Position numbers and translations under genes: made by a program. From positions 576,001-640,000 of the forward strand of contig JAWLHY010000001.1 of NCBI GenBank assembly GCA_041690135.1: a DNA stretch of 64,000 nucleotides. The letters are read 5' to 3'. Under the pieces are notes generated by a model, which made no database searches, had not been told where the DNA came from, and saw only the letters and a program-made list of their open reading frames with translations. The stretch comes from Armatimonadota bacterium (GTDB taxonomy: Bacteria > Armatimonadota > SYMT01). Positions 7,405-34,102 of this stretch are shown piece after piece; positions within the stretch are counted from its first letter, which is position 1, and the number at the start of each line of letters is the position of its first letter.

Positions 7405-7420
7405 CCGTCCCCCTGCCTGA

Positions 7421-7582: not shown

Positions 7583-7640
7583 TCCCCTGAGGAAACCCCT
7601 CCACCTAGATGGAACGATGGCATCCGGGATGGGACCCGCT
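7583..7640 (+). repeat. Dispersed island motif copy A (GAGGAAACCCC..TGGAACGAT..GATGGGACCC)
   Basis: Aligns by eye with 25132-25191; core GATGGGACCC at 7628-7637. Confidence 0.7.
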
Positions 7641-7649
7641 GTGAGCGGG

Positions 7650-8174
7650 CTAAAAGGACAGCCCGTTCTCGACAAACGACGAGATACGGTAGTACACGTC
7701 CTGGTCCCTTGGTATCATCCCGTCGAGGAAGAACATCACCAGGTCGTCTTCCTCGACATACCTGCTCAGGAGGTCCGAAACAGTCTCGTGGCGTCGGAAG
7801 CAGTACGTGTGAAGAGCACCTCGCACCAGGTCGGTGGCTTCGTCGCTCTCTTCCGACAGCGGCTCTGATCCACTCGGGAGTAGTTTTGCGGAGCGGAGGT
7901 GTGCGACCAGACCCTCCCAGGATTGTCCCGTCTCAGACCACCAGTCCAGGAACAGCGGGTCGTATTCGTAATCCCAGTAGCGGGATTCATAGACCGAGTG
8001 GATGTTCCGAAGCGTGACGAGCCAGAGGGCTACTTCTACGGGCGGCGTATCGGGCTGGATCACGGAACCAAGCTTCGGATCGTGCAGCGCGGCCCATGCC
8101 GTATCCCACCATGCGGTATTTCCTGGGTCGTCCACATTGCTGAACAGCTTGGTCCGCACCTGATCCCAATCCAT
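7650..8174 (-). CDS. Hypothetical protein (174 aa, acidic, Trp-rich)
   Basis: ORF with natural composition, 24 bp downstream of the large ATPase on the same strand. Confidence 0.6.
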   Translation of the reverse strand: MDWDQVRTKLFSNVDDPGNTAWWDTAWAALHDPKLGSVIQPDTPPVEVALWLVTLRNIHSVYESRYWDYEYDPLFLDWWSETGQSWEGLVAHLRSAKLLPSGSEPLSEESDEATDLVRGALHTYCFRRHETVSDLLSRYVEEDDLVMFFLDGMIPRDQDVYYRISSFVENGLSF

Positions 8175-8197
8175 CGTTTCCTCGCATTCTTGAACGG

Positions 8198-11100
8198 CTA
8201 TTCTGCGATCCCCTCGGCAGTTGTGGAGAGGTAGGGATACATCTCCACCTCGGCGCAGGTTGCCATCTGGGGCGTCTGAATGAGCGCGTGGCCTACGTCC
8301 AGTCCTTCGAGCTTGGACACAGTATCCGGGATGAAGTGCGGAGCCTTGAGGTATCCCGAGACCCGCTTGGAGAGCGGGTAGTTGGTTCGGAAGATCACCT
8401 TAGTGCCTGCGTTATCCAGCACCTCGGGACGAAAGTCTTGCATGTTTTGGCTGGCGACCACGACGGCTATCCCGAACTTCCGTCCTTCCTTCATCAGCTT
8501 GGGGAGCGTTGTATCTTTCGCCAGACGGTGAGCCTCATCGAGAACGATCAATAGCCTCAGCCGATCTGTCTCACCCCAAAGGAACATGTCCTTGTAGAGC
8601 TTGCGAAGGACGAACGCCCCCGCCGCCATCTGCATCGTCTCGATCCCCACGCGGTGCAGATCGATGACAGTGGTTTGAAGTCGTGAGGGATGGAACGCCA
8701 GGGTCTCTGCTGCATCCTCGCGGAACATGTCGAACTCGAAGAGCATGCGGCAGCGGGCGACGGTATTCTTGATCCCACGACGCTCGTTCTCTAACTCCTT
8801 GAGCCGGGTGAAGACTTCCGCCATCGTTGGTGGCGTCAGGTCTGAGTCTCGATCCCCATCGCTCTCATAGCCCGCTCGCTGGTAGCAGTCACGGATCGCT
8901 TCATACACGAGGTCTCGCTGCATATCGCCGAGACCAAACACGTATTCGATGATCTCGCCGACCTGGAAAGCATTGGTCCGCCACTGGTTCGTGCCTCCGC
9001 CTTGCCCGGCACTCGCCTCGAACGGTGAGAAGGGCAGACCCTGTGATACATCCAAGACCAGGGGCTTTGCTGCCTTCGCAAAGGGGGTGTCTCCCTGACC
9101 GAACTGCCCGTGAAAGTCGAAGATCAGCGCGGGAATACCCCGTCGGGTGACTTCGGACAGCAAGCGCAGGACGGCCCAACTCTTCCCCTGTCCAGGAATG
9201 CCCAGCACAAAGAGGTGGGAACTCCCAGAGACGGAGCCGGTCCAGGAGACTTCGGCATCTGAATGGACGCTCCTTCCCAACGGAATGACCAGTTTGGAGG
9301 GGCCGTCGGTTCTCCGCTCATCCGGCTCGCGGGAGGGTTCCGCTGACTCGACCTCTACTGCCTCCTCAACCTCGGGAGCATCTTCAGCAGGTTGCGGCAT
9401 GGTCGGGGTGTCCAGTACAGCGGTGGAGACTCGCGCCTCAGTGGCAGCCCGCCCTTCACCACGCTGGTCCGCGCTGGCTTCTGCCGTTATAGGCGGCTCC
9501 TGGCTCCCTGAACCGCTCTGGCTTGGTCTGACACTGGGGCGAAAGCTGGTGTCCCGCTCCACCTCGATCCCCGTCAGCACCGTGATCATATTGTCTCGAT
9601 GCGTGAACGGTCGGCGGCTCTGTCCATCCAGATTGACTACATAGCCGAAGAAGCGAGACGCCAGGCGAGCAAAGCCCATCTCCACGCGCCTGATGTTGCT
9701 CAGCATCTCTGCGTAGTGGCTATCATTGGTGATCCGTCCATGCCGGTAGGCACGTTCCGCGTAGAATCGCAAGATAGCCGCCAACTGGCACCTGAGGATC
9801 GGCGCATCGAAACGGGCCGGGTCGGCAAAGTAGAGACTGCGGAAGGTCTGATCCGTTCGCGCCGTCTGATCGGCGATTTGGTCCAGGAGGGGCGTGGGCA
9901 CGGGGTTGTTCCCGATCCGGTACTTGACCTCCAGATAATCGATTAACAACCGCTGGCGGGTTGGACGCACCAGGAGAAGGTCGCAACGACTCCCCGACTC
10001 GGTCACCTGGGCTTGCTTGGCATCCAGGAAAAGCCGCTTGTGCGCATCCAGGGGCACCACAATGGCGTCCTGTAGCTCGCCTTTCTGCTGGAGGTAGTTC
10101 GCGACGACCGCCAGGCTGACCGTTTCCTTGGCGAACGAGTCCTGGCCGAGATCGCTCCCGACTTCATTTCCGATGAGACGCAGCGCCAGCCGCCCCGAGA
10201 TCATCTTCAAAGTTGCCAGAAGCTCCGCGCAGCTTCTCTCGTCTCGTGCGAGGCCCAGTTCGTGCATCGCACGGGCGATCACGTCTGCAACTTCCTCCTT
10301 CCACTGCGTTGTGACCACGAGACGATGCCCCAGACCATCCAGAAACTCGGGCGTGTAGTCCAGGAGATACTGCCGGGCCTGCGAGGCGAGGTGAGTGTCA
10401 GTCGGCGTGTCGTAATACTCCACCCCGAAATGCCGGTCCACCGTGAGCACCCAGTCCGACTGCTGATGCAGAGTACTCACGATCCGCCGCTCCTCAGGAC
10501 CCACCTCCAGCCGCAGCGCGGGGACCTGGTTCGTCTGCGCCTGCCCGTCTACCAGCCTCGCCGACAAGCGCAGAAACGCTTCTTGCCCCTCCACCAGCAG
10601 GTCTGAGTAGGCTCGATTCACAGGATGCCGCTCGGCGACCTGCTCACCCTCGAACACCACCTTGCGCTCCCAGATCGCCCGGCCTTCCTCACTGAAGAAC
10701 TGCGTCTGGAAGTGTGTCAGCAGCCCGAAGATCGCTGCGCTCGTGCCGGTTGCGTAGTGGGAGCCACTCGACCCCTGCGCCTCTCCGCCGTCTCGGGCCT
10801 GGCTAACCGCGATATGTGGTTTGTAGTGGTCCAGGCACAGGGTCAGATGCACGTCTCCGCCAGGAAGGCTGTCCAGGTTCGCATCGGTCAACGTGCGGCG
10901 TGAAACCTGAACGCCAGGTCGCAGGTGCGTGCCTCTTGCCCGTAGCCCGCGACGATACCATTCTTCGGTGATCGCCTCCAGACCGGGCGCGGGGGTCTGA
11001 ACGTCGCTCTCTGTGTGGGTGATGAGATCGAGGTGGAGGGAGCTTCGTCCGTCCGTCCCAAGCGTCTCGTCGTCCGCAGTGGCTTCTGCGAGGGCGTCAT

Positions 11101-13408
11101 CCAGGGCTAGTCGCAAGAACTCCCCTGATCCAGGGTTGATGGCGTTGACACGGAGCGTCTTCAGATAGGTGTGGAGGTCGAGGTAGCTCTTGATCTCGGA
11201 GCCGATATCCTTCGGCTGAAGGTCAGTGAGTGAAGGCTCGATGAGACCGAAGCCGGTCACCCGCGCTACTTCGGACAGCAGCGTGCCCGGATCGTCGGTA
11301 TTAAGCGGTACGCAGATGGCATGGAAGAAGCCGAGGTTGTCGGCGAAGATTTCTGATCGTTCCCCTGCTTCCCCCCTCACGAGAAACGCGGGCAGGTTGA
11401 GGGGCGCGAGATGTGCCAGTGCCGTCTCATTCAAACGGGCTGCTCGCGTGCGCTGCGGCAGTCCCACCAACTCGCCAGTGATCTTACTGATCCACTCCGC
11501 GTAGGCCACGTACCACAGCAGGCGCAGTGGATGGGTGGGCAGCACCACCGTGGCGTGAGGCCGACCGGGCAAGTAAGGTATCTCTAACTGGAGAGTGTCG
11601 AGGGCGAGTAGAGCCGCCGCATCCTCCCGCGAGCCACCGTTGGTGTCGGAGCGGCGAGCGCTGGTGGCTGCATCAAGCAGGTCACAGTATGCCTTGGCGT
11701 AGGCGCGGACATGGCGGCAGACGCTGGCGCTGAGATCAGCCGTTTCGATGAGGCCGCGCCCCTTCTGATCCCGTATGGCATCAAACGCTTGCTTCCGTTC
11801 CCTGGTGAACTTGCTCCAGGCGTCCGACAAACCCGCGCTGACGACCACAGGCTGTGCTTCCACACGGTCGCGGTCCAGGGTGTCTACGCCCGTCACAGTC
11901 GCTGTATAGCGCCCCCCTAGCAGCGGGTTAGCGAGAGCATCTGTCTCCAACTCCCGCAGGAAGGGGGTCGTCGCCACACGGACTACCGAGCGCTCGTTCA
12001 CCATGAACGGGTAGTACGCCAGGTCCTTCTCTTCCACGGGAAGCGGGGAGAGGTGGTACTGCGCCTCCTTACCCCGCATCGCAAGGGAAAGCACGGCGTC
12101 AGGCAAGCATCGGAACGTCGGAAGCCGACGCAGCTTGGCCTGGTCTCCATCTGTGCCTGCCGCCTCCAGGTAGAAGCTCTGGCTGATGCCTTCGATGGCT
12201 TCGCTCGTCTCGGGGTCGAGAATCTCGGTGCCATTAGTGTCTAACCCCACCACGCGAGCCTGAACCTCTCGCACGTCCAGAGTGGCGGGGTCCAGGTCAA
12301 GCGAGACCTTGGCGGACCGGGCGCTCCCGCGCACCGTCGCCTGGGGAAGGTCCACGCCTGCGGCGTCACCAGCATCGTATTTGTCGCGGTCGGGGATCAA
12401 TTCGACTCGCCACTGCGCGACATCCGTGGGTTTGCTGGGCTGTGGCTCCCAGCGCACCGTGACCTTCTGCTTAGGTCCACACTCCGCGTAAGGAACCGTC
12501 CCAGGTGCCGCCTGCTTCAGTCCGCAACTGGCTCTGACGACGCCGTTCTCATAAAACGGCACCACGTCGATCCTTTCCAGATCGGACGGCTCGACCTTCG
12601 GGAACTGCCACTGGTCAAAGGTCAGGCGGCCCTGCCAGTCCGGCTCCGTCAGGATGCGGAGCCATTCGCGATCTGACTGGAGCCGCTTCCCGATCAGGTA
12701 CTGGCTCAACTCCGTCTGGATGGTATTCGGGGCGAGCTTGAGGGATGCGACTCGCTCGGCTACGCTGGAGTGCGGGCGGGCAGGTCGTGCCAGGCGATCC
12801 ACCGATTGCCGGTTCAGGTCCAAGCGCCTGGCATAGTCGTCGTGCTCGGAGTAATCCGGGATCAGACCTACCCGCCACAACTCGGCTCCCGCCGTCTCCA
12901 GCGTCGGGTTGTCCAGGATGGCGGAGAGATAGTCGATCTCGTCCTCCACGGGCACTCGCGCCGTGCCACGCAACTGTCGGAAGACGGCGTTCACGTAGGG
13001 CTTCACGTCTCTGGGGATGTCGTTCTGAAGCTCATCCACAAGCCTACGGAGGAACTCGGGGAGGTCGAAGGGAGCGAAGGAGTTGCCGAGCGAGCTAACC
13101 GCCACATCCTGAAGATCGGCAGGCACGAACAGGCAGAGGCCGGACCGCTTGCGGTTGCGAAGCTCGATAGCCCGGTCGGAGGGGATTTGCAGGTCGTCCT
13201 GTTGATCGTGTGACAAAACATACGTCTCAGCGTTCGCACTCATCACAGACCGCAGACCCATACCCGCGCTGCGGGCTTCCTCCGCGCTCAGATGGTCCAC
13301 GCGCACGCAGTGCCCTGGGAGCTTGCCGTCGAACTCGCTCGCCAGCCGTTCGATCAATCGCTGCATCTTCCGCGAGAGTGGTGGTGCCGATCCCACGGGG
13401 CCATTCAT
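8198..13408 (-). CDS. MAD8/DndH(DptH)-like protein with C-terminal HerA/FtsK ATPase
   Basis: 1736 aa; AIELRN near N-terminus, LPTHPLRLLW, DWVLTVDRHFGVEYYD, nuclease-like RCDLLLV...LEVKYR, Walker A GIPGQGKS, Walker B IVLDEAH, KEGRKFG. Confidence 0.8.
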   Translation of the reverse strand: MNGPVGSAPPLSRKMQRLIERLASEFDGKLPGHCVRVDHLSAEEARSAGMGLRSVMSANAETYVLSHDQQDDLQIPSDRAIELRNRKRSGLCLFVPADLQDVAVSSLGNSFAPFDLPEFLRRLVDELQNDIPRDVKPYVNAVFRQLRGTARVPVEDEIDYLSAILDNPTLETAGAELWRVGLIPDYSEHDDYARRLDLNRQSVDRLARPARPHSSVAERVASLKLAPNTIQTELSQYLIGKRLQSDREWLRILTEPDWQGRLTFDQWQFPKVEPSDLERIDVVPFYENGVVRASCGLKQAAPGTVPYAECGPKQKVTVRWEPQPSKPTDVAQWRVELIPDRDKYDAGDAAGVDLPQATVRGSARSAKVSLDLDPATLDVREVQARVVGLDTNGTEILDPETSEAIEGISQSFYLEAAGTDGDQAKLRRLPTFRCLPDAVLSLAMRGKEAQYHLSPLPVEEKDLAYYPFMVNERSVVRVATTPFLRELETDALANPLLGGRYTATVTGVDTLDRDRVEAQPVVVSAGLSDAWSKFTRERKQAFDAIRDQKGRGLIETADLSASVCRHVRAYAKAYCDLLDAATSARRSDTNGGSREDAAALLALDTLQLEIPYLPGRPHATVVLPTHPLRLLWYVAYAEWISKITGELVGLPQRTRAARLNETALAHLAPLNLPAFLVRGEAGERSEIFADNLGFFHAICVPLNTDDPGTLLSEVARVTGFGLIEPSLTDLQPKDIGSEIKSYLDLHTYLKTLRVNAINPGSGEFLRLALDDALAEATADDETLGTDGRSSLHLDLITHTESDVQTPAPGLEAITEEWYRRGLRARGTHLRPGVQVSRRTLTDANLDSLPGGDVHLTLCLDHYKPHIAVSQARDGGEAQGSSGSHYATGTSAAIFGLLTHFQTQFFSEEGRAIWERKVVFEGEQVAERHPVNRAYSDLLVEGQEAFLRLSARLVDGQAQTNQVPALRLEVGPEERRIVSTLHQQSDWVLTVDRHFGVEYYDTPTDTHLASQARQYLLDYTPEFLDGLGHRLVVTTQWKEEVADVIARAMHELGLARDERSCAELLATLKMISGRLALRLIGNEVGSDLGQDSFAKETVSLAVVANYLQQKGELQDAIVVPLDAHKRLFLDAKQAQVTESGSRCDLLLVRPTRQRLLIDYLEVKYRIGNNPVPTPLLDQIADQTARTDQTFRSLYFADPARFDAPILRCQLAAILRFYAERAYRHGRITNDSHYAEMLSNIRRVEMGFARLASRFFGYVVNLDGQSRRPFTHRDNMITVLTGIEVERDTSFRPSVRPSQSGSGSQEPPITAEASADQRGEGRAATEARVSTAVLDTPTMPQPAEDAPEVEEAVEVESAEPSREPDERRTDGPSKLVIPLGRSVHSDAEVSWTGSVSGSSHLFVLGIPGQGKSWAVLRLLSEVTRRGIPALIFDFHGQFGQGDTPFAKAAKPLVLDVSQGLPFSPFEASAGQGGGTNQWRTNAFQVGEIIEYVFGLGDMQRDLVYEAIRDCYQRAGYESDGDRDSDLTPPTMAEVFTRLKELENERRGIKNTVARCRMLFEFDMFREDAAETLAFHPSRLQTTVIDLHRVGIETMQMAAGAFVLRKLYKDMFLWGETDRLRLLIVLDEAHRLAKDTTLPKLMKEGRKFGIAVVVASQNMQDFRPEVLDNAGTKVIFRTNYPLSKRVSGYLKAPHFIPDTVSKLEGLDVGHALIQTPQMATCAEVEMYPYLSTTAEGIAE

Positions 13409-13420
13409 TGTCGCATGATC

Positions 13421-15154
13421 CTATGAGTGCTGGAGGGTTGTCGATTCAGTTGCAGTGGGTCTCGCGTCCTCGGGTAGGTCGCTGTGGAAGCGCGGGAAGA
13501 TGCGCTGAGCGTTGAAGTCGTCGGACAGGTCCAGGAAGAGGCCCATCTGGCGGAGGCGCTGCTTGAGCGCGGTGAAGTTGTCCTTGGCGGCGGCGGTGGC
13601 TTCGACGCTATGATCGAAGGATGGCGGAGTGTCGATCAGGATGCCGAACCGCTCCTGGAGGAAGGTCAAGAACGCCGCCAACGTAATGCTTCGAGGTTCA
13701 GGAGCGGGTCTAGGGTCTCCGCTCTGCCGTTGCGCCTCGGGTGAGAGGACCGCTAGCTGGACGAGCGTCTCTAGCAACAGATCGCTCAGCACGTAGCGCC
13801 ACACCCGCCGCCCGCGCTCATTCCCACGCAGTATCCCGTCCGAACGGCGCAGCCCCCCCACGTCGCCGTACCACTTCAGGATGTTGCGGAGACCACTCTT
13901 ACGCTGAAGCAGGACCAGTAGCTCGCTGACTCGGGAGAGCACGTCCAGATCAGGGTGCTCCAGGATCGCCTGAACATCCAGGGGTAGGCTCGTGTCGTCG
14001 TCGCCCTCGCCACGGAAGAGCTTCTCGATCTCTCGCTCATCACTTCGGGCGTCCGCCCTGATATCTGGGTGTTCTCGCAGTCCCCAGAGCGTCGTGAGGT
14101 ATTCCCCACCCACCTTCGGGCCAATCTCGCGCTTCAGGTCCCGATTACCTTCCACGTAGCGGTTGAGCGTGCGAAGCTTGAGCACGGAGTGGAAGAAGTT
14201 CTCCATCTCCTCCAGATGCCGGTTCACGCATTCGTTCGCCAACGTGTCGCTGCGGCTACCTCGGATCTGGGTGAGATCAACGTATAGCTCCAGTGGCGTC
14301 AGTTCCTGGCTTCGGGGGTCAAACTCGGGAGGCACCTCGCCTTGGACGACCAGAGTGTTCGTCGCCTTCATCAGCCTGAGGGTGTAGATCAGGAGTTCAA
14401 AGTTCAGCAGGCAGATCAAGTAGCGGGCCAGTATCTGCGGCGGAACGCGACCTGAGTAGACAGTCAGAAATCCCGCGATATCCCAGGCAAGGCTCTGTGC
14501 CGCGAAGGCGCAGGCGGGAGGTGCAGGGGGGCGAGCCGACCGATTGCTCTCTCGTGGGGCGTCGAAGCCGTCCAGATAGTACAGTTGCAGCAGCACCTCT
14601 AGGTCGAGCGGAGTGTGCCCATCGTACCGCCCGTCTTTGCTCGCTCCCTGGCCTAGCTCTACGCCACGTGCGAACGTTCGGGTGATGAGAGCGTCGAATA
14701 TTCCCTGGACGACACCTCGATCCCGTGGGTCTCGGGTCAATAGCGTGGTGAGCAATCCGTACAGGAAGTGGTGAACCTGCCGCATCCGGCTCGTCTGCGC
14801 GGGAAAGGACGGCTTGTAGGACAGGAAGGAAAGCGGACGAATGTAGGCGATCTGCTCCGCCTTGTGAGCACGGCCCACGGTGCTCGTCTCAATAATGCTG
14901 GTCCGTACCCATTTATCCAGAAGCCGGATACCACTCTCGTCCAGGAAGCCTTTCAGCTTGGGATGACCCGCTAGCGCGGTGGTCCGACCGATGATGTCTT
15001 TCGTATCGGTGCGGGTTGCCCGATCCCTTCCGCCAGACCGGACGAGCCAGAAGAGAGCAGGCAGGAGCATCTCCACGTCAAAATCATTCATCTCGACAAC
15101 AAACAACTCGTCGAGCTTCGTCCCTGCGAGGTCACGGGGGAGCTTTACGCGCAT
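13421..15154 (-). CDS. MAD7/DndG(DptG)-like protein
   Basis: 577 aa between kinase and ATPase; C-terminal FLQERFGILID...LKQRLRQMGLFLDLSDD as in DptG-like proteins. Confidence 0.7.
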   Translation of the reverse strand: MRVKLPRDLAGTKLDELFVVEMNDFDVEMLLPALFWLVRSGGRDRATRTDTKDIIGRTTALAGHPKLKGFLDESGIRLLDKWVRTSIIETSTVGRAHKAEQIAYIRPLSFLSYKPSFPAQTSRMRQVHHFLYGLLTTLLTRDPRDRGVVQGIFDALITRTFARGVELGQGASKDGRYDGHTPLDLEVLLQLYYLDGFDAPRESNRSARPPAPPACAFAAQSLAWDIAGFLTVYSGRVPPQILARYLICLLNFELLIYTLRLMKATNTLVVQGEVPPEFDPRSQELTPLELYVDLTQIRGSRSDTLANECVNRHLEEMENFFHSVLKLRTLNRYVEGNRDLKREIGPKVGGEYLTTLWGLREHPDIRADARSDEREIEKLFRGEGDDDTSLPLDVQAILEHPDLDVLSRVSELLVLLQRKSGLRNILKWYGDVGGLRRSDGILRGNERGRRVWRYVLSDLLLETLVQLAVLSPEAQRQSGDPRPAPEPRSITLAAFLTFLQERFGILIDTPPSFDHSVEATAAAKDNFTALKQRLRQMGLFLDLSDDFNAQRIFPRFHSDLPEDARPTATESTTLQHS

Positions 15155-15163
15155 CTCCGCCTC

Positions 15164-19358: not shown

Positions 19359-19413
19359 ATTTTTCCTCAATTTGCTGCCGCCATGCGCTATGGGTAGTGG
19401 AAAACGCGCTACA
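19359..19413 (+). promoter_or_regulatory. Divergent control region with TTTTCCTCAATT and AAACGCGCTACA motifs
   Basis: Both motifs recur elsewhere in the island (29925, 30093; 7421). Confidence 0.5.
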
Positions 19414-19426
19414 CAAAGGAGGCAAG

Positions 19427-19873
19427 ATGCAGACGTTGACGAGAGACGGGGTTGGGTATCGCACCCGCGTGATGACGGAACAGAATGCTCAATCGTTTGC
19501 CGCCTGCCTGCGGGCCAACGGCCAGTTCACCAACGTGGAAGTTCACGAGGAGCCACGAGCCAAGGGGGAGCGCCGCTATTACGTCGCCTACCAGCCGTCA
19601 GACCCACAGCAGCAGCAGGTGCTTCTCCAGGGCCACGAGGAGCAGCGCCGCGCCAGAGCCGAGAGTGAGGGCGAGCAATACCTCTTCGTCGAGAATTCGG
19701 ACACTGGCCGCTTCTTCTGGTGCCAGTCGGTCAGCGGCGAAGTGTACGAGGTGACACTCCACAACTGCACCTGCCCGGATGCCGAGTTCCGCTGCCGGAC
19801 GAACGGAATCCGCTGCAAGCACTCCCTGGCGCTGGAGAAGGCCCAAGAACGCGGTGCCGTCCTCACCTTCTGA
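19427..19873 (+). CDS. SWIM zinc-finger protein (mobile element type)
   Basis: YEVTLHNCTCPD...CKH SWIM motif; AAGGAGG RBS before ATG 19427. Confidence 0.85.
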   Translation: MQTLTRDGVGYRTRVMTEQNAQSFAACLRANGQFTNVEVHEEPRAKGERRYYVAYQPSDPQQQQVLLQGHEEQRRARAESEGEQYLFVENSDTGRFFWCQSVSGEVYEVTLHNCTCPDAEFRCRTNGIRCKHSLALEKAQERGAVLTF

Positions 19874-19881
19874 TGCATGAG

Positions 19882-19907
19882 AGGGCCGGGAGTCCGCATC
19901 CGGCCCT
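19882..19907 (+). terminator. GC hairpin after SWIM gene
   Basis: AGGGCCGG-N10-CCGGCCCT; no clear U tract. Confidence 0.3.
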
Positions 19908-20112
19908 AAGCACGCCGAGGAACGCCGATGAAGGACGACGAACTACTCTCGCAGACCACCCGACATCCCACCGACTTCACCCACCGTGTTGACGCGCAAA
20001 TCCAGCGGCTCGACGACCTCTAACAAAGCGTGCAGGTTCACTACAAGTACTTCCCAGCGGGTGTCGTCAATAGCTTCGGGTGGTAGACGGCCATTACAGA
20101 CGGGTACCAACA

Positions 20113-21042: not shown

Positions 21043-21156
21043 TCGCTCCGTAGCATCTCTGCCGCTGTGTCCGTACCACATTCACCGCGCTGGAGTCTCA
21101 GCGCTCAAGGCCGTGAGGGAGGTGGGGCGGCGGTCCCGCTGAAGACATTCTCAACG

Positions 21157-21202
21157 CAAGCCCCTTTCCTCTCGGTGGATCATCGCAGCGATGGGACCCG
21201 CG
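21157..21202 (+). repeat. Dispersed island motif copy B
   Basis: CAGCGATGGGACCCGC, core 21190-21199, between convergent Shedu and HNH-TPR-PIN genes. Confidence 0.55.
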
Positions 21203-21236
21203 CTAGGGGTGTGAGAGCATAATCATCCCCGCTCTG

Positions 21237-24200
21237 TCAATTGCAGGGGGTGGAGCGCCCAGCATCCTCAGCAGGTGGATACGTTGACGCTGCGATTCCG
21301 AGATCGGGCAGGGCCTCGGTACGAACCAGGCGCTGGAAATCCCTGGGACAGCCGGATGTCAGCCTGCGCACGAGCGCCGTGACGGCCTGAGGCCGTCTTC
21401 CGAAGCTCCGCACTGCTTGGGCCACAGCCCGTGCTATTATGCCTGAGGCGATACGCCGAGTTCTGGCCCAGTCGTAGATCGCTCGGATGCACGCTGCGGC
21501 CTGATCGTCTGTGCTGTTCTCACACAGCAAGTAACTGCAGCGGTAGACGGCGTGCTGCAGCCAGAAGTCGTCCGGGTCATCCTGGTGGGATTGTTCGAGG
21601 ATCGCTTCTATCCACGGCTGGCGGAGGTCCTCACTGCCAGCTACCCAGTCAGTGAACAGGCTCCAGACTACTTCACTGAGCACAGCAGAACTGAGTCGCC
21701 GCTCCACTTCTGGCCGTCCAACTCGGACGAGCATGCTACGCGCCGCCTGGTTGTCGTCTCTCGGATCGGAGCGGATCGTGTCTGCGATTTCATTGCTCCG
21801 CAGCGGAATCGCCGTGTAGGAGTGGGCGAAGAGCAGCCGAATGCAGCGCCAGTACTCTGACTCATCGATCAATCCCTTGTGGCGGGCAGCTTTCAGGAAG
21901 CCGCAGATGCCGAATGCCACGTTTCCTTGCTCCCGCACCAGATACTGAACGACGGCCTCGTCGGTGAACAGCGGAAGTGCGCTCTCCGCACCTGCCCTGG
22001 CGTCCCGCTCTCCTTCGGCAGCCGAATCCTCTTCGACCACGCCCACTCGTTTCACGACCGGGTGGCGAGCCAGAAAGCGGATGATGTGATGCAGTCGGAG
22101 TCGGGCCGACGGTTCCTGCACCCGGATCATACTGTTTCGGACCTGCAGGAAGAAGTGCTCTGGGACAATCACCGCATCGAACATGCGTGGAAGCAGGTAG
22201 AGCTGGCCGAGAAGCTCTAGCGTCAGCAGGGCCGTGAGGTCCACGGTGACCTGGCGTGCCTCAAAGGCGACCGCTGCTTGCAGGAGATCATCGGCGGGCG
22301 TCCCGCCGTGGCATCTGATCTCGTATTCGGCGTCCCGACGCTGGATGATCTGTTCCCAGAGGGAAGGGAGCGGGAGACCGGTTTCCTGTGCCAACCAGGC
22401 AAGCGGCAGAGTTTGGCATCGATAGGTGAGCCAGGCAAGCCGAACCTGCTCATCGTGCTGAGCGCGAAGTTCGGCCATCTGGCGGTCGCGCTCCTGGCGC
22501 GTGGGAGCCTGTTGTAGCCAGATCAGAGGACTGTCAGGCCAGCGCTCCCGAAACTCTCCGAGCCACTTCAACGCCAGGTCCCACCGCCCACCTCCTTGTA
22601 CGGCGCAAATGGCGCTCATGAACATCTCGGGACTCTTGTCCGCTCCCGCAGCCACGGCTGCTTCCGCCCAGCGCACCGCCTCGGGTGCCGCTTCCATCTC
22701 CCGACAGATCGTCGCTAGGTTGAGGGAGGCGAGTGCGTCAACATTACCCAATTCGTGAGCGCGGACAAGCAGCCGATAGGCTTCATCGAGGTTGAAGAGG
22801 TTCCACTCGGTCTGTGCAAGACCCAGCAGGGCGCGGAGACTGTCTGGCTCCGCTTCCAGGAGCTTCCGCCAGCAGCCCGCTGCATCGCGATGCTGATGCA
22901 GTCGAGCCAAGACGGATGCGCGAATGTCCAATAGCTCCGTGTTTGCGAAGCCTTCGGTCGAAGCCGAGTCGAGAATGGTGAGCGCTTCCTGACACCTTCC
23001 GGTATTCACGAGCGCGGCAGCGCAGTTGTGATAGAGGGCAGGGCGGTTGGGTCTACCTGCTTCCTTGTTGCGCAGGATCAGGTGTTGGCTCACCGCCGCG
23101 AACTCTGCCCAGGCATCCTGATCTAGCAGCACCTTGGCTGCGATCTCCAGGACGAGAAGATTGTCAGGCGCGATCTCCTGGGCACGCCGAATGAACGCCA
23201 GCGCTTCCTCTGCCAGCCCATCCTGCAAGCGCCATTGCGCCCGCTCTAGGTACGCCTGCCATGGGTTAGGGTAGGTTTCAATGGCCCTCGCCAGGAGTGC
23301 TTCGGCTTCTTCCCTTTGGGTGGCTTCGCCCTCGCCTTCCGCCGTCTGATGTCGCAGGGCATGCGCAACGAGCACTTCCACGTCCAGCTTCAAGGCGGTC
23401 GGTAGGTCAGGATGGTCTCGTAGCGGCGCGAGGCGCTCAAGTGCTTCGGAGAACCACCGAGCACTAACGAGCGTGAGGCACAGGTTGTAGATCGTGGGAA
23501 GATCGGTTGGGTCCAACTCGACCGCGTGAACGAAGTGGAGACGTGCCGCCTCCATATCCCCCTCGCTCATCTCTACCCGCGCAAGCCCGCGCAGTGCAGG
23601 CACCAGCACCGAGCGAGGCGGTCCAGCCGCTGTAGCCCGCACGTAAGCGTCTCGTGCCGCCGTGATGCTCCCTAGCTCCAGGTGGCAGAGACCGGCATGT
23701 ACCAGGCACCGCGCTGCGGCTGCGGCACGGCCATTCTGGTTATACTGCTCGGCGGAGTACTCGAACTCCGCAGATGCTTCCACCAGGCGGTTCCGGTCGA
23801 TCCTCAGGTCGGAGAGCAGTGTGTTGGCAAGACTATGTGACTCGGGCGAGGTGATGGCTTGGGAGAGGAGCACATCACCCAGAAGTTCATGGGCTTCGGG
23901 TTCACCCGGCTCACGCGCCACGCAGTCCCTGGCGAGAGCTTCTGCCTTGTCCAGTTCGCCTGCCAGACGGTAGGCATTTGTCAGGGCGTAGTCGCGGCGG
24001 ATGTCAACGTCCCCTCGCAGCCGGGCTTGGCCGTCCAGAAGCTCTATCGCTTGCTGCGGCTTTCCCTGGCTGAGGAGCAGGTTCGCTTTCGTGTGGACGG
24101 CCTCGGGCAGCGTAGGATCAGACCTAAGTATCGGCTCCAGAAGGCGCAGCGATTCCTCCACAGGATCGTCACAAAGGTCCCGAGCGATGACGAGATTGGT

Positions 24201-24962
24201 GACGGCGTGGGGGTAGTCGGGACGGAGTCGCAATGCTTCCTCGAATGCTGCCTTGGCCTCCGCCTGCCGCATAAACGCGAGATGACAGCAGCCAAGGCGT
24301 GTCAGGCGAGCATAACGGAGGTCATCTGTCCAACCGTAACCGTCGCCCGTGCCGAGTTGGAGCACAGCCCAAGCAACCTGATACCGCCCCTCTTCGATGT
24401 AGCGCTTCCCGAGGTCAAGCTGCTGACGGATGATTTCGTGAGTCGCCGACCGCTGCGCCGCGACAGCTTCCTGATAGGCGAGACTGATGTTACGGGTGTC
24501 CTGGCGTCCCCACTCCGCATTCTCGTGCAAGAGATCACGAAACGAGCTGAGTTCAGCCGGTCGTCGGTTGACCTCAACCTGGGGCCAGAGCGGACGGACC
24601 CCACCGCCAGCGATCAACGCCTCATGCTGCCCTTTCCATTCGAGTAGCAACTCCTTAGGGAAAACATTCGGGTCTCGGTCGATCATCGTGGCGCAGATGG
24701 TGCAGAGCCAGATAGCGTTCTGGATGCTCATCCGCTCCTGCGATGTCTGGAGAGGATCGTATCGGGGTCCCCCTGGCGAGGCCGCGCAGATGTGTGCGGC
24801 CTCGCCGAGGGTGGTCACCCTCGCTGGATCAGAATGGGGCGCGACCGTGAGCCGTCCGCAGTCCGGATTGCTGCAGGCGTATGCTGCGCGTGCGGCGAGT
24901 ACTCGGCGCACTGACGGGGAGAAGTCGTCGCGTGGCAAGAAAGCACACTCGTGTCCGGACAC
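21237..24962 (-). CDS. HNH-like domain + TPR solenoid + PIN-like domain protein
   Basis: N-term CSNPDC..EAAHICAASPGGPRYD..NAIWLC; many TPR-like repeats; VTVDLTALLTL..FDAVIVP and LFTDE PIN-like motifs. Confidence 0.75.
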   Translation of the reverse strand: MSGHECAFLPRDDFSPSVRRVLAARAAYACSNPDCGRLTVAPHSDPARVTTLGEAAHICAASPGGPRYDPLQTSQERMSIQNAIWLCTICATMIDRDPNVFPKELLLEWKGQHEALIAGGGVRPLWPQVEVNRRPAELSSFRDLLHENAEWGRQDTRNISLAYQEAVAAQRSATHEIIRQQLDLGKRYIEEGRYQVAWAVLQLGTGDGYGWTDDLRYARLTRLGCCHLAFMRQAEAKAAFEEALRLRPDYPHAVTNLVIARDLCDDPVEESLRLLEPILRSDPTLPEAVHTKANLLLSQGKPQQAIELLDGQARLRGDVDIRRDYALTNAYRLAGELDKAEALARDCVAREPGEPEAHELLGDVLLSQAITSPESHSLANTLLSDLRIDRNRLVEASAEFEYSAEQYNQNGRAAAAARCLVHAGLCHLELGSITAARDAYVRATAAGPPRSVLVPALRGLARVEMSEGDMEAARLHFVHAVELDPTDLPTIYNLCLTLVSARWFSEALERLAPLRDHPDLPTALKLDVEVLVAHALRHQTAEGEGEATQREEAEALLARAIETYPNPWQAYLERAQWRLQDGLAEEALAFIRRAQEIAPDNLLVLEIAAKVLLDQDAWAEFAAVSQHLILRNKEAGRPNRPALYHNCAAALVNTGRCQEALTILDSASTEGFANTELLDIRASVLARLHQHRDAAGCWRKLLEAEPDSLRALLGLAQTEWNLFNLDEAYRLLVRAHELGNVDALASLNLATICREMEAAPEAVRWAEAAVAAGADKSPEMFMSAICAVQGGGRWDLALKWLGEFRERWPDSPLIWLQQAPTRQERDRQMAELRAQHDEQVRLAWLTYRCQTLPLAWLAQETGLPLPSLWEQIIQRRDAEYEIRCHGGTPADDLLQAAVAFEARQVTVDLTALLTLELLGQLYLLPRMFDAVIVPEHFFLQVRNSMIRVQEPSARLRLHHIIRFLARHPVVKRVGVVEEDSAAEGERDARAGAESALPLFTDEAVVQYLVREQGNVAFGICGFLKAARHKGLIDESEYWRCIRLLFAHSYTAIPLRSNEIADTIRSDPRDDNQAARSMLVRVGRPEVERRLSSAVLSEVVWSLFTDWVAGSEDLRQPWIEAILEQSHQDDPDDFWLQHAVYRCSYLLCENSTDDQAAACIRAIYDWARTRRIASGIIARAVAQAVRSFGRRPQAVTALVRRLTSGCPRDFQRLVRTEALPDLGIAASTYPPAEDAGRSTPCN

Positions 24963-25131
24963 AGCCTGACTGCGGCGATGGGCTGGCCATACCTTCTGAA
25001 AAGTATCTGCACCAGCATATCAAATCTTCGTTTGCCAGTCAACCGAGATGTCTCCCGGTCCTCAAGGGCTGCGGGCCTCCATAAGTCTCATGCTCTTTCA
25101 GCGGCGTGCACGGCTCCGAGGGGTCATGCTC

Positions 25132-25191
25132 TTGGGAGTCCCGAGGAAACCCCCTCCACCGCGCTGGAACGATCCAGCGATGGGTCCCACG
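25132..25191 (+). repeat. Dispersed island motif copy C
   Basis: GAGGAAACCCCCTCCACCGCGCTGGAACGATCCAGCGATGGGTCCC; core 25179-25188. Confidence 0.7.
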
Positions 25192-25302
25192 CTCGCCGTA
25201 CCCAGGATGCGCCAGGAAGACTGATCGCCGAGGTCTCCCGCCCCGACACTCCGAACAAGGAAGTAGAACAGCCGCTGCGAGTATAAGGCAGGAGGGAGTC
25301 AA

Positions 25303-25470
25303 GTGGAGGAAGCCAGACCGTTACAGGCCGATGCGCTCTTCGTCGCGTGTCGAGAACGTAATTACCCAGAGGTGGCGCGATTGCTGGATGAGGGGCCGTC
25401 ACTGGTGAACTTTCAGTTGCATGCGGGAGACGAGCATCCGCCCTACTGCAGCGGATGCTGGACACCCCAC
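25303..25470 (+). pseudogene. Truncated ankyrin-repeat gene start
   Basis: LFVACRERNYPEVARLLDEGPSLVN...GCWTP, with GGAGGGAG RBS; then runs antisense into the next gene. Confidence 0.45.
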
Positions 25471-25505
25471 TCCGAAGCGGGTGACCGCCGTAGCCCTTCT
25501 AACCT

Positions 25506-26516
25506 CTACCGCACTCTGCCCTGGAGACCATCGCCTGGTGGCGTCTGCGAGTCACAGATTACACGCTGTCGTGCCTCAATCCTCTCCATGACTCTCCCGA
25601 TCCGAGCATCGAGGTCGTCCAGGTCCGGATTGAAGTTTCCGACCTGGCGCAAAGCCTCGTCTCGGGCCAACGGGTCACTAGCAGTCAACTCAACCTCGGT
25701 GCCGCTAATGCAGTCAATGCAGTAACTAGCGAAGCAACGAGGACCCTCGTATCGGTCGCAGAGTAACACGATCAGGCGAAGGCAGCTAAAGTACTCCACC
25801 TCTGCGTAGAGCAACCCCGCCGCTCCATCTCCGAAGATGGTTACCCGATGGCAGATAAGGTCATCAGGAGTCCGGTTTTCGAGTGCCGCGTCGGCGTAGC
25901 CGACATAGGATTCGTCTGCCATGCCTCTGATGAAGGGGATTAGATGCTGGATGATCTCGCGAGACCCACCTCTGAGCATGTACAGGTTCACTGCGGACTT
26001 GCAGACGGCCCTGGCTACTTCCGCTCCTCCGAACGAGATGCGTACCCGCGCAAGGCTGTCCGGGCGGTGCGACTCCTCCACTGCTGCTGTTAAAGCCGCC
26101 TCTACGTCGAGTTGCGGGTATCGTCGCTTCAGACCATTGAGCAGCTTCCGGGCCTCCTCTCTGCTTCGAGCTTGAATGTTGAGGAAGACCTCTTCCCCCT
26201 CCTCGGTGACCTCGACATGTGGGCGGGCACGGTGGCCTACGCCGTCCGTCTCCACCAGTACGGTCTCCCCCGTATCCAGTAGTTCGAATCGTAAAGGAGG
26301 GGTCTCGCCACGTTGCCGGGAGACATCTAGCAGATGCGATAGGGGGTGGAGTTGACGACATAGCTCGGCATCGATCCGCTCTCCGAACTCGCAGTTGCAC
26401 GAGTGGCATAATAGTTTATCGGAGCGAAGCCTGCCGCCGATTGCGTTAGCGATCACGTGCTCCCGTGAGTAGTTCTCCCCAGTAATCTGTGACTCGCAGA
26501 CGTAGCAAGTGCCCAT
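25506..26516 (-). CDS. HNH endonuclease family protein
   Basis: MGTCYVC...SREHVIANAIGG...LLCHSCNCEFG..ID. Confidence 0.8.
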   Translation of the reverse strand: MGTCYVCESQITGENYSREHVIANAIGGRLRSDKLLCHSCNCEFGERIDAELCRQLHPLSHLLDVSRQRGETPPLRFELLDTGETVLVETDGVGHRARPHVEVTEEGEEVFLNIQARSREEARKLLNGLKRRYPQLDVEAALTAAVEESHRPDSLARVRISFGGAEVARAVCKSAVNLYMLRGGSREIIQHLIPFIRGMADESYVGYADAALENRTPDDLICHRVTIFGDGAAGLLYAEVEYFSCLRLIVLLCDRYEGPRCFASYCIDCISGTEVELTASDPLARDEALRQVGNFNPDLDDLDARIGRVMERIEARQRVICDSQTPPGDGLQGRVR

Positions 26517-26544
26517 CGTTCTTCCCGTAGTCAGTGTGACCGGC

Positions 26545-27372
26545 TCAAGGGCGAAGGAGACTCCCGGCCCGCCTCGCCAGTGCAAGTAGGTCGGACTTGA
26601 AGGCCGAATCCGGCAGTGCGTGGATTACCTCTTCGTAGGTCACCCAGTGAAGATGGAGGCGTTCCAGGCATCCCGCCAAGTCCAGAGGACAGTGGCGGCG
26701 GATGGCCCCTGTTGCGAGCGCCAAGTCCTCCAGTATTGCCTGCGGGTTCCCTTTATACTCCCAGAACTTGCAGCCGTAGAAGCGGGTCCTGGGATGATCC
26801 CGGAAGAGGCGAGGGGTTAGCAGGACGACATGAACCGCGTCTGGGACGGCGGTGACCCGCGTTGTTGTCCGCGTTTCTAAACCGCAGAATGTGAGGGCCG
26901 TTTCGATCACCCGCACCAACTGGTTCCGTGTCGGGTCGTGTGTGGTGCGGGAGGCCATGTCAGAGTAGAGCTTCGCCTCCACAAAGGCTATCCAGGACGG
27001 CTCTCCAGCCGGGCGGAGCGCGAACTGGATGCCACCCGCTTTGTCAGGACGCAGGGCGATGTCTCCTGTCGCGAGGTCGATGTGGCTGTTGTACTCCTTC
27101 GTCCGAGCAGGATAGGCTAGCGCTTCCAGCCAGATCGTCTCGGTGGGCGTCGGAGGTGGGGCACCGAGGAGGACGGACGCCAGCCGGGTCGGGCCGTCCG
27201 GCAGGCAGGCGTAGCCCCAGGCGCAGAGGTAGGTCCATATCTGCTCGTCCTCAACAGGTGCGAGACCGTGCTCGACGTTCGCGAGGGCCGCTCTTAAGGC
27301 AGTCTCGCTCAGGCTACCCTTCCGAAGGCTGTTCGGGAGGGGTTGCCCCAACGTGGAATCCAGAAGGGACAT
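26545..27372 (-). CDS. Putative PD-(D/E)XK nuclease
   Basis: SHIDLATG...FVEAKLYSD...HDPTRNQLVR; start moved to ATG 27372. Confidence 0.6.
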   Translation of the reverse strand: MSLLDSTLGQPLPNSLRKGSLSETALRAALANVEHGLAPVEDEQIWTYLCAWGYACLPDGPTRLASVLLGAPPPTPTETIWLEALAYPARTKEYNSHIDLATGDIALRPDKAGGIQFALRPAGEPSWIAFVEAKLYSDMASRTTHDPTRNQLVRVIETALTFCGLETRTTTRVTAVPDAVHVVLLTPRLFRDHPRTRFYGCKFWEYKGNPQAILEDLALATGAIRRHCPLDLAGCLERLHLHWVTYEEVIHALPDSAFKSDLLALARRAGSLLRP

Positions 27373-27442
27373 GGTGAACCTACACAACGCACGTGCCCGA
27401 AGTGGCTGCCAGAGGGACTTAGCCTCCCTGCAATCCTGCCTA

Positions 27443-28270
27443 TCAGGCGTCCGGGAGAGGGTTTGGTGCTCGTGGGAACACCCTCTCGAAGTCCCAGTAA
27501 TCTTCAGCGCCCACGAAGCACTCGGACAGCCAGACTTCATCCACCTGTGGCGGTGGCGGGGAGTCCGTCAGAATGGCTGTCCAGTCATCCTCTCCCAGGT
27601 AGTAGTTGCCGATCCTCTCTAGGAGCAGCACGCGCCTCGTGTCCTCGTAGCCCAGGAACTTCCGAGAGCACGCATCAAAGAAACGCATCAACTCGGGTGC
27701 CAAGCCCGCCCGCGCCTCGGCACAGGCTTCGGGTGTCAGATAATCGATGGACGACGACCAGTTGACGATCAGGCCCGAAGTTGGCTCATCCTCCTCTCGC
27801 TCAACTTCGTGCTGGCGGCGCAGTCGCCAGCCCCAACGCCCAGAGACGCCCTGGAAGGTAGCACCCGGCTCCAGGCTGCTGAACTTCACCAATACACACC
27901 GACTCACCTCGTCAGCGAAGGCGAGGAGTTCACGCCGCGACCCCTGGATCAGGTCAGGCAACTGTAGCTGAAAGGGAGCCTGCCGCAATGCCGCGCCCAC
28001 CTGGTCGAAAATACGGCCCGCGACCAGGTGATCGTTCTGATGCCGCTGGGCGTAGTCCGCAGGCCAGATGAGGCTCTTCCGCTCAATGGTCAGCCTCGCC
28101 CCGCTGGACGGATCGACATACAGCGCCTCAGGCTGTGGTCTGTCCGAGGGCGTAAGGTCAAGACAGGCTTCGTGGCGGTATCCTGTGCCTTCTGCGCTAT
28201 TGAGATGCTCTACAAACGGCTCCGTGTTTCGGCGCTCGCACCCTCCCGAGTGTGGCAGGCAGGCCATCAT
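27443..28270 (-). CDS. Hypothetical protein, possible nuclease fold
   Basis: AAGGAG RBS; PQPEALY...LTIERKS resembles a variant PD-(D/E)XK motif. Confidence 0.55.
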   Translation of the reverse strand: MMACLPHSGGCERRNTEPFVEHLNSAEGTGYRHEACLDLTPSDRPQPEALYVDPSSGARLTIERKSLIWPADYAQRHQNDHLVAGRIFDQVGAALRQAPFQLQLPDLIQGSRRELLAFADEVSRCVLVKFSSLEPGATFQGVSGRWGWRLRRQHEVEREEDEPTSGLIVNWSSSIDYLTPEACAEARAGLAPELMRFFDACSRKFLGYEDTRRVLLLERIGNYYLGEDDWTAILTDSPPPPQVDEVWLSECFVGAEDYWDFERVFPRAPNPLPDA

Positions 28271-28294
28271 GCATCTCCTTGTCGTTCTAAGCAG

Positions 28295-29005
28295 TCATGC
28301 CCCTTGCGACTGGTGCTTCCACTGAAGCCAGCGATCCAGGAGGTTGCGCACGAGTGAACGCGCATCATCGAGGCTCATCGGGTTCTTCGGGGGCTGAGTG
28401 CTCTCCTTGCCGTGACGGGCGACATCCCCGAGGGCACCAACGCTGTTTGACGTGTGCTTGAAGTTCTTGATCACTGCCGCAGAAGCCCAGTCCCCTTCAC
28501 GGATGGCCTTCCCGGCATCACCCTCAATCACCTCGAAGACCACGTAGAGGTCTCGCCAGTCAAGATCACCCGACCCGAAGATTCGCAGGGCCTTGGCAAC
28601 CTCTGGGTCGTGGGTGAGACCAAACAGCATCTGCAGGTCCGGCTTCGCTGCAGGGGCGTCCGTGCCGCCGTAGAGTTCAGCGGTCATGTTGGAACGGATG
28701 CGTGCGTTCCCGCTGAACGTCACATAGTTGTGCCTGACGGTCTCACTCTCAATGAGGGTGACGCCGCCGACCGCAACCCGTTCGAAGCCGTTGAGAAGCG
28801 TCTTTCCCAGCCCATTTAAGGACTGTACGATTGCCTCGGCCTTCTCGCGCACCTCGCCCGCATCAGTGAGCGCCTCGAACTCCCTAGCCCGCAGGACGTA
28901 ACCTCCGTCCTGCTCCGTCACGTTCAGGTCATCCGACGTAAACGCAGCAGCGAGTGCTTGCAGATCGAACTTGTGGCCTTCTAGCCGTACCCGCCATTCA
29001 GTCAT
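28295..29005 (-). CDS. Hypothetical protein, possibly HEPN-like helical C-terminus
   Basis: WRDLYVVFEVIE...FKHTSNS...ARHG; co-oriented with three downstream genes. Confidence 0.6.
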   Translation of the reverse strand: MTEWRVRLEGHKFDLQALAAAFTSDDLNVTEQDGGYVLRAREFEALTDAGEVREKAEAIVQSLNGLGKTLLNGFERVAVGGVTLIESETVRHNYVTFSGNARIRSNMTAELYGGTDAPAAKPDLQMLFGLTHDPEVAKALRIFGSGDLDWRDLYVVFEVIEGDAGKAIREGDWASAAVIKNFKHTSNSVGALGDVARHGKESTQPPKNPMSLDDARSLVRNLLDRWLQWKHQSQGA

Positions 29006-29153
29006 CCCTGACCACTCTCTCTGACCCTACCGATGTCCGGTAACCAGCCTGGCAGCGATTGTACCACTTTCGCGGTCGTCCGTGTATGGGGCCTGCGACC
29101 TGCGGGGCCGTCTACCCCGTAGAAGTTCCGTCCCGTGTAGGAGCGCAGCGCCT

Positions 29154-29840
29154 TCATGCCGCCTCCTCGTCGCCCCACACGATCCGGCACGCCTGCTCAC
29201 CATTGAGCCTATGCGGTGGCCGGCAGAGAGCCTCCGTCAGTGCATCGAGTTTCTCTCTGTGCGCCCGAATGATAGTTCGAGCCAGGTTCTCTGCCGCGTG
29301 GTAGAACTCCCACAGCCTCGACTCTCGGGGATCGTCTGCGTATATCTCGTCCCACTCTGGGAAGCCCAGCATCTCGCAGATAACGGCGATTGCACTCTCT
29401 GTGTCTCCTGTTGGGTCCAGGCGCTCCCGCTTCGAGAGGCGTCCGTATACCTCCCGCACAGCGGCCCTGCCCGCCGCTGTGATGCAGACACGGTCCAACT
29501 CGCTCTGGTAGTAGCTGTGGCAAATGCCCATTTCGCCGTTCTCGTCCCCCTCACGGAAGGGTGAGATCCAAACCTCCTCAATGTAACACTCTGGGAGGAT
29601 GAGGGCCACCAAAGCGTGCCCGCTCTCGTGGACCGCCCTCCTCCGCAGCTTGTGCCTGGAACATCGACGGGGTTGGGCGTTTACCTCCGCCAGGGGAACC
29701 TCTCTCTGGTCTGCTTTCGCCGCGTGTCCCGCAAATTGCCGCTTTCCTCTTGACTGCGGGGACTGGCCCTCTGGCTCAAAGCGGACACGGCTCTTGGTCA
29801 TGAGGTCGTCGCGCAGTGACGACTGGCTAGCGCTCTCCAT
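29154..29840 (-). CDS. Stand-alone M41/FtsH-like zinc peptidase domain
   Basis: RRAVHESGHALVA (HExxH), AAGRAA, LDALTEAL; no AAA domain. Confidence 0.7.
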   Translation of the reverse strand: MESASQSSLRDDLMTKSRVRFEPEGQSPQSRGKRQFAGHAAKADQREVPLAEVNAQPRRCSRHKLRRRAVHESGHALVALILPECYIEEVWISPFREGDENGEMGICHSYYQSELDRVCITAAGRAAVREVYGRLSKRERLDPTGDTESAIAVICEMLGFPEWDEIYADDPRESRLWEFYHAAENLARTIIRAHREKLDALTEALCRPPHRLNGEQACRIVWGDEEAA

Positions 29841-29924
29841 TCAGCCCTCCTCTGGGTTTTGTAACAGCTGGGTGCCTGCGGCCTATCCGCGAGCACCCGC
29901 TATATAAAGTTGGGGACAGCAAAG

Positions 29925-30104
29925 AATTGAGGAAAAATGCCACGGGGGCTTCCAAGCTGTGCCACCCCCACGGGCCTGCGCTACGAGAAGTCCCAAGGAA
30001 GCGGTTGCGTGGAGAGGAAGGGTTGGCGTCCGATGGGACCCGTTGTCTCGTGAAAGACCAGCCACGCTAGGGCGAAGGATCAGGCGAGGGAGTTTTCCTC
30101 AATT
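29925..30104. promoter_or_regulatory. Inverted TTTTCCTCAATT pair enclosing motif copy D, between divergent genes
   Basis: AATTGAGGAAAA 29925-29936, GATGGGACCC 30032-30041, TTTTCCTCAATT 30093-30104. Confidence 0.6.
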
Positions 30105-30125
30105 TCCCAATCCACATAGCCTTCT

Positions 30126-34100: not shown

Positions 34101-34102
34101 TT

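Follow-up and report, generated by a model that had tools for sequence, protein, structure and literature searches.

To our knowledge, the assembly of defence islands has been traced to only a few vehicles, namely integrons, P2/P4 hotspots, Tn7-like elements, hotspots of integrative and conjugative elements and tRNA-targeting integrative elements. The landmarks of P2/P4 hotspots are conserved phage or satellite genes, and stoperators, the repressor sites of Cluster A mycobacteriophages, occur some two to three dozen times in a 50-kb phage genome, aligned with the direction of transcription and recognised by a known repressor. Repeated integration into a single site can scatter copies of the attachment motif and degraded elements through an island, as described for tycheposons, whose repeats are partial tRNA genes and which come with integrases or integrase fragments (10.1101/2020.12.28.424599). 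Here we describe a window of 64,000 nucleotides (nt) from an Armatimonadota bacterium (positions 576,001 to 640,000 of contig JAWLHY010000001.1, assembly GCA_041690135.1), in which four copies (A to D) of an intergenic element with the core GATGGGWCCC lie in one orientation at the borders of defence modules. We tentatively read the four elements as att-like junctions left by serial site-specific insertion of these modules, a reading that we hold with low confidence.

The core has four matches in the window (7628-7637, 21190-21199, 25179-25188 and 30032-30041), where 0.40 (sd 0.60) would be expected, and none of 100 shuffles reached four. All four are on the plus strand, which taken alone has p = 0.125. 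In agreement with the first-pass annotation of this stretch, all are intergenic, being outside open reading frames (ORFs) that have a coding pattern of GC by codon position or family matches.

Element A, a left arm plus core (7561..7637, plus strand), lies in a co-directional gap, 180 nt to the right of a ribbon-helix-helix (RHH) frame and 12 nt to the left of the stop codon of the p174 gene, both on the minus strand. Element B, a short arm plus core (21173..21204, plus strand), lies in the convergent gap between the plus-strand Shedu gene (stop at 21042) and the minus-strand HNH-TPR gene (stop at 21237), 147 nt past the former stop and 37 nt past the latter. At both A and B a cargo stop codon is thus found within 40 bp to the right of the core, as had been noticed before. 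Element C, again a left arm plus core (25117..25188, plus strand), occupies a 543-nt co-directional gap between the start of the HNH-TPR gene (24962) and the stop of the p359 gene (25506), both on the minus strand. To its right is a block (25265..25299, plus strand) that resembles the block to the right of core D and ends in a GGAGG-type ribosome-binding site before a plus-strand ORF at 25303. Element D (30024..30093, plus strand) combines a near-core likeness to A (30024-30046) with a right block like that of C (30055-30093), in the divergent gap between the p228 (minus strand) and p261 (plus strand) genes. The divergent context of D rests on GC by codon position, the plus-strand ORF 30126-30911 being coding-like (0.64/0.49/0.75) and the overlapping minus-strand ORF antisense-like, and the plus-strand reading was confirmed by relatives.

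Because one oriented element is found in co-directional (A and C), convergent (B) and divergent (D) gaps, a promoter or terminator role cannot cover all four copies, and their placement is independent of local transcription. The feature common to the four sites is that each parts two functionally distinct modules. Across the elements these modules run in the order PDC-M26/REase-like/RHH; MAD6-8, SWIM and Shedu; HNH-TPR; a five-gene operon; and p261 through to a HEPN gene. The intervals between elements measure 13.6, 4.0 and 4.9 kb and hold one to six genes each, with plus-strand genes within the A-B interval.

The four copies are one real sequence family of about 30-80 nt, as seen in local alignments of whole intergenic regions compared with shuffles (pairwise z). 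A and C align well beyond the core, as the first-pass annotation had reported, over about 77 and 72 nt (7561-7637 and 25117-25188, z 9.1), and their left arms taken without the core reach z 10.0, a score that none of 300 shuffles equalled. B and C align over 33 nt (z 5.1) and A and D over 25 nt (z 4.8), the latter likeness being limited to the near-core flanks, and A and B align over a 12-nt core alone (z 3.6). C and D are similar in the right block (25265-25299 and 30055-30093, z 5.1) but not in the left arm (z 0.1). The similarity between copies is mosaic and pivots on the core. When a profile of the four copies was run on the 64-kb window, including ~30 kb of adjacent core genome, it returned no fifth copy, the next match having an E value of 0.4.

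The elements lie in the low-GC part of the window (positions 1 to ~34,000; GC 0.53-0.64 vs 0.61-0.70 in the remainder), which is a compositionally foreign defence island. Third-codon-position GC is about 0.57-0.80 in the island genes vs 0.74-0.93 in the other genes, the high-GC part carrying genes for arginyl-tRNA synthetase, a sulfatase, and DUF1501, DUF1553/PSD1 and DUF4058 proteins. Such a gene set points to a Planctomycetota-like chromosome. The sulfatase gene lies with GFO/IDH/MocA genes at 34.4-37 kb. Elements are present in 4 of the 11 island gaps and 0 of the 13 core gaps (Fisher one-sided p 0.031), an enrichment that is only modest and was computed from crude gene calls, in which two real island genes were missed.

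If the elements are att-like joints, each joint between modules would have arisen by site-specific recombination at or beside the GATGGGWCCC core, and the modules would have been added one by one, by accretion, into a chromosomal island. Each internal joint would retain one arm from the left module and one from the right, and the recombinase would be one that works in trans or is encoded beyond the window. Such joints would explain why the copies share an orientation, sit at module borders irrespective of transcription and have mosaic arms, mosaic similarity being the expected look of hybrid joints built from the arms of different related elements. We infer all three of the recombination itself, the crossover point and mobility. 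The first-pass annotation had proposed that the motif is a cis site next to which defence genes are loaded. Of this proposal, a real family at the borders of separate defence modules stands, and the cargo slot and P2/P4-like backbone that accompanied it are not supported. As to the backbone, scans of the window turned up no gene of the integrase, primase, capsid or cos type, and among the PHROGs matches of 16 island proteins there was no P2/P4 backbone gene. These matches were to p237 (endonuclease, head-closure and unknown-function families), p359 (HNH endonuclease) and the HEPN protein (one family of unknown function).

Several observations weigh against the att-like reading. Identity is low, with 10-13 nt identical between copies and arms that are 65-85% alike, and B is nearly armless. 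No copy of the element is present at the right island edge (33676-34394), and the A-B interval does not form a single tidy cassette, as it contains two systems that run on opposite strands. No integrase, transposase or resolvase was found among 46 main ORFs (Pfam), and no recombinase among 22 island ORFs (PADLOC and NCBIfam) or 16 (PHROGs). A scan for recombinase remnants in stop-to-stop ORFs over the non-coding stretches of the island gave no Pfam match in 61 of 62, the ORF left out being p261, which was scanned separately with Pfam. The left end of the island falls outside the 64-kb window, and the integrase negatives hold within it. The window also has no tRNA, tmRNA or other usual target. 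A search of a genome collection, in which the host genome is absent, with the 19-nt B/C consensus returned seven loci in unrelated taxa; the matches cover the queried core alone with no arm and can therefore be considered chance matches. No related locus in another genome was seen in the genome-collection scan or the plasmid searches, in which distant-mode blastn against 72,556 plasmids gave one irrelevant coding match for 19300-25550 (an HNH gene in a Rhizobium plasmid) and none for 25100-32300.

Known site types were looked for at the elements directly. The attC consensus pairs an R'' core site (RYYYAAC) with an R' core site (GTTRRRY) at a distance of 35-130 nt, and neither such pairs nor single sites were present in the four gaps ±30 nt on either strand. 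The XerD-arm motif of the 28-nt dif site, allowing up to two mismatches, matched at none of the elements, and its sole match in the window falls at 33061 (minus strand). A coding reading of the elements was rejected, indels placing the copies in different frames with no ORF common to them. An extracytoplasmic-function-type promoter (GGAAC, spacer, core) was rejected because the spacer between GGAAC and the core is 13-17 nt and varies between copies. Among the papers listed in a literature search for the 10-mer, none had a title on bacterial genome repeats or mobile elements.

It is possible, though somewhat unlikely, that the element is instead a genome-wide dispersed intergenic repeat, a lineage family resembling repetitive extragenic palindromes (REP) or miniature inverted-repeat transposable elements (MITE), with four old copies here by chance and no role in the loading of cargo. 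REP- and MITE-like families are common in bacteria, and a repeat of this kind would suit an element that is short (30-80 nt), diverged between copies and strictly intergenic, with the 7-bp palindrome GGGWCCC inside its core, an 18-nt imperfect palindrome in B and in C, and no recombinase nearby. A dispersed family sits less well, however, with 0 copies in the ~30 kb of adjacent core genome vs 4 in 22.5 kb of island, the contrast tested above, and with the single orientation of all four. The folds also gave no sign of a stable hairpin, none of those of the four copies on two strands with RNA parameters being clearly more stable than shuffles (z -1.30 to +0.70), and neither terminal inverted repeats nor target duplications were seen at the elements by eye.

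A binding site for a protein, in the form of an operator, an insulator or a stoperator-type roadblock through which an island or host regulator silences or insulates the defence modules, is unlikely in our view. Conservation is indeed highest in the 10-13-nt core with its 7-bp palindrome and the elements fall between transcription units, and the asymmetric, one-orientation repressor sites of Cluster A mycobacteriophages offer a published precedent (PMC9283540). The core heptamer GGGWCCC is also rare, with 6 sites in 64 kb vs ~19 in shuffles and 4 of the 6 being element cores, but no such deficit is left when the expectation comes from a maximal-order Markov model (4 vs 3.4 and 2 vs 4.5). A simple operator would not be expected to come with the 45-80-nt arms common to subsets of the copies, B is in a convergent gap without a promoter, and no cognate regulator was identified, the nearby RHH frame lacking a start codon. 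In the whole window, GGGNCCC-type words are strongly depleted relative to dinucleotide-preserving shuffles (GGGCCC 9 vs 47, GGGNCCC 14 vs 47).

A more ambitious version of the att-like reading, which we regard as doubtful, is that the island belongs to an undescribed cassette system of a Planctomycetota-like bacterium. A recombinase acting in trans would capture and stack multi-gene defence modules with their own promoters at an attP-like site of ~150 nt, composed of a left arm, the GATGGGWCCC core and a right block. If this were true, the system would amount to a "biobank" of the integron kind that lacks both attC hairpins and IntI.

A second motif in the island, TTTTCCTCAATT, was taken by the first-pass annotation as the far edge of a cargo slot that begins at the core, with an 11.7-kb filled slot extending from A. 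Its copies at 19361 and 30093 on the plus strand were found as listed, together with a third at 29925 on the minus strand that had not been listed, where 0.01 matches would be expected in the window. The first copy (19361..19372, plus strand) is 54 nt upstream of the ATG of the SWIM gene (19427), the second (29925..29936, minus strand) 84 nt upstream of the ATG of p228 (29840), and the third (30093..30104, plus strand) 108-195 nt upstream of the likely start of p261, which is 30213 as judged from relatives and 30300 in the gene call of the protein collection. The copies ahead of SWIM and p228 resemble each other across 28 nt. Because each copy lies upstream of a gene and in the orientation of that gene, TTTTCCTCAATT reads as a shared promoter or operator motif and not as the far edge of a slot. 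A comparison of empty and filled states of such a slot gave nothing significant: neither the sequence left of 19361 (z 0.9) nor the right flank of A (z 1.8, p 0.057) was significantly similar to the right flank of D. A second 5'-untranslated motif common to the surroundings of the SWIM gene and the RHH frame was not above chance.

The SWIM zinc-finger gene (19427-19873, plus strand) encodes 148 amino acids and belongs to a rare family, with 7 relatives among 5.8 billion proteins. Its predicted structure has a mean predicted local distance difference test (pLDDT) score of 73.4, and a Foldseek search of the PDB had no match at E <= 0.001. Just after p261 is what remains of a second SWIM-family gene, 46 codons (31030..31170, plus strand) with homology to the SWIM protein's N-terminal domain (45% identity over 31 residues; tblastn E 0.002, tblastx E 5e-6). 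The SWIM gene and the SWIM fragment, together with the three TTTTCCTCAATT copies across modules, would fit a stack of related modules, and this part of the first-pass annotation agrees with our results.

These same duplicated pieces, the promoter-like motif in triplicate and the SWIM fragment, could also point to the local duplication of intergenic DNA within the island, leaving elements with no present function. We consider this very unlikely. The coding sequences beside the copies are unrelated apart from a common HNH domain (33% identity), and duplication would therefore have had to move only ~60 nt, four times, always to a module border and in one orientation.

Least probable of all is that the element is co-transcribed with its neighbours as a structured non-coding RNA or a 3'-end element, a role which the positions of A and B just beyond minus-strand stop codons and small drawable hairpins (e.g., GAGG-loop-CCTC in A and C) might suggest, but which is opposed by the unremarkable folds of all eight sequences, the lack of a relevant Rfam family, the placement of D between divergent genes and of C 317 nt from the nearest stop, and hairpins that are not kept between copies. 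At the gathering score, Rfam gave no family in the whole window except two Acido-Lenti-1 RNAs away from the elements, and at E values up to 10 around A and C only chance eukaryotic or viral models. The Acido-Lenti-1 matches are at 37241-37287 (minus strand) and 43088-43134 (plus strand), with 39.0 and 40.6 bits, and one of them adjoins the gene of a 23S-rRNA-intervening-sequence protein.

To the left of A, the island begins in the window with PDC-M26 B/A genes (McrBC-like; 2-4106, minus strand), followed on the same strand by p237 (4179-4892), a protein of 237 amino acids that matches only the last 166 residues (802-967) of the 970-residue restriction-endonuclease family BPTD_3080 and is either a free-standing nuclease domain or the product of a truncated gene. 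Next are a gene for an uncharacterised 793-amino-acid protein (4813-7194, minus strand) and the RHH frame (7157-7447, minus strand), which overlaps the start of the 793-amino-acid gene. The fold of the RHH frame is preceded by no ATG, GTG or TTG, an ATG being present in a different frame, and the sequence is a possible pseudogene with a frameshift.

Between A and the SWIM promoter, the stretch is occupied by p174 (7650-8174, minus strand) and the MAD8-, MAD7- and MAD6-like genes (8198-19342, minus strand), whose products are a DndH/HerA-like ATPase, MAD7 and a NERD-kinase-STAND protein. With 1736 amino acids, the MAD8-like protein is a fusion that has DndH/HerA-like parts. These three MAD-like genes are all that is present of the methylation-associated defence system, a methyltransferase and other mad genes being absent. 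SWIM, in divergent orientation, begins 85 nt upstream of the start of MAD6 and is followed by Shedu (HNH-SduA; 20080-21042, plus strand). The sole gene between B and C encodes an HNH-endonuclease-TPR protein of 1241 amino acids (21237-24962, minus strand). Shedu (20137-20499, plus strand) and the HNH-TPR protein (24525-24896, minus strand) have in common an N-terminal HNH effector domain, with 33% identity over ~130 residues, which matches CBASS-type endonuclease effector models in PADLOC.

The interval between C and D is filled by a five-gene operon (25506-29840, minus strand) encoding p228 (with an HExxH motif), p236, p275, p331 and p359 (HNH_5), for which scans with Pfam, PADLOC, NCBIfam and PHROGs gave no match to any known defence family. 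A perfect 21-nt inverted repeat (25542-25562 and 26482-26502), where 0 would be expected, brackets the 919-nt body of the p359 gene. In-silico inversion of 25563-26481 produces an open plus-strand frame that runs from a GTG at 25303, with a GGAGG-type site before it, through the repeat and into the HNH body, and in the inverted frame a stop codon comes directly after the second 21-nt repeat. There is no similarity beyond the 21-nt repeats, the alternative N-terminus has a weak coding signature and no Pfam match, and longer proteins with this N-terminus were absent from 106 candidates, which is weak evidence. The segment may act as an invertible switch or may record an earlier inversion, and within the reading as a novel cassette system the 21-nt repeat might be a second site-specific switch in the island.

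To the right of D is p261 (~30213-30911, plus strand), whose family has 84 cluster representatives, mostly of 300-340 amino acids. Its look-alikes by language model are viral clusters, including one with gp32 on 18% of its members. Pfam gp32 was matched below the cut-off by 2 of 32 relatives, and PHROGs of single-strand DNA-binding (SSB) proteins were weakly matched by 3 of 12. No match came from tblastn searches of 50,697 phage records with p261, SWIM and one relative of p261, nor from profiles of the p261 family run against PDB sequences, and the predicted model of a p261 relative was unusable (pLDDT 41.3). We take a phage gp32-type single-strand DNA-binding function for p261 as a weak lead only. 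The island continues with two small genes (31118-32089, minus strand) and a Swt1-type HEPN protein (32314-33675, plus strand). At its right edge, non-coding DNA (33868-34004 and 34105-34285) contains a GAGCCTGTC-containing unit in two direct copies and one inverted copy, and just upstream of the sulfatase gene is a long imperfect inverted repeat with arms of ~25-28 nt that are 85-88% complementary.

A conserved, oriented sequence at the junctions of unrelated defence systems, in a phylum with little sampling, would be a handle for finding the recombinase, and also for mining modules such as the unnamed five-gene operon and the HNH-TPR gene. If the element turns out to be an operator or a repeat common in the genome, the finding is an ordinary one.

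The island resembles several described systems in part. Like the stoperators of Cluster A mycobacteriophages, the element is a short asymmetric intergenic site in one orientation, but there are only four sites, flanked by mixed transcription, and no repressor was identified. As in P2/P4 phage and satellite hotspots, defence systems lie between recurring landmarks, although no such backbone is present here and the sole phage-like hint is p261 with its weak gp32/SSB-like lead. Ordered same-orientation sites that close defence "cassettes", with stop codons close by, recall integron cassette arrays and clusters of attC sites lacking integron-integrases (CALIN) that carry anti-phage systems. In contrast to integrons, the four elements have no attC core-site pair on either strand and no IntI gene was found, and the intervals of 4.0-13.6 kb are multi-gene and use both strands, unlike compact single-ORF integron cassettes. 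The repeat of a tandem integrative element is derived from the integration target (a tRNA, a tmRNA or the end of a gene); the element here has no Rfam match and no reading frame that is consistent across the copies, and by these tests is not target-derived. Tycheposon islands of Prochlorococcus and streptococcal cis-mobilizable elements provide a further comparison. Whereas tycheposons have tRNA-derived repeats and integrases, the 64 kb here contain no tRNA and no recombinase or fragment of one. The likeness to both lies in the same-orientation direct repeats at module borders, the defence genes among the modules, the degraded older copies and the internal joints with arms from both neighbours.

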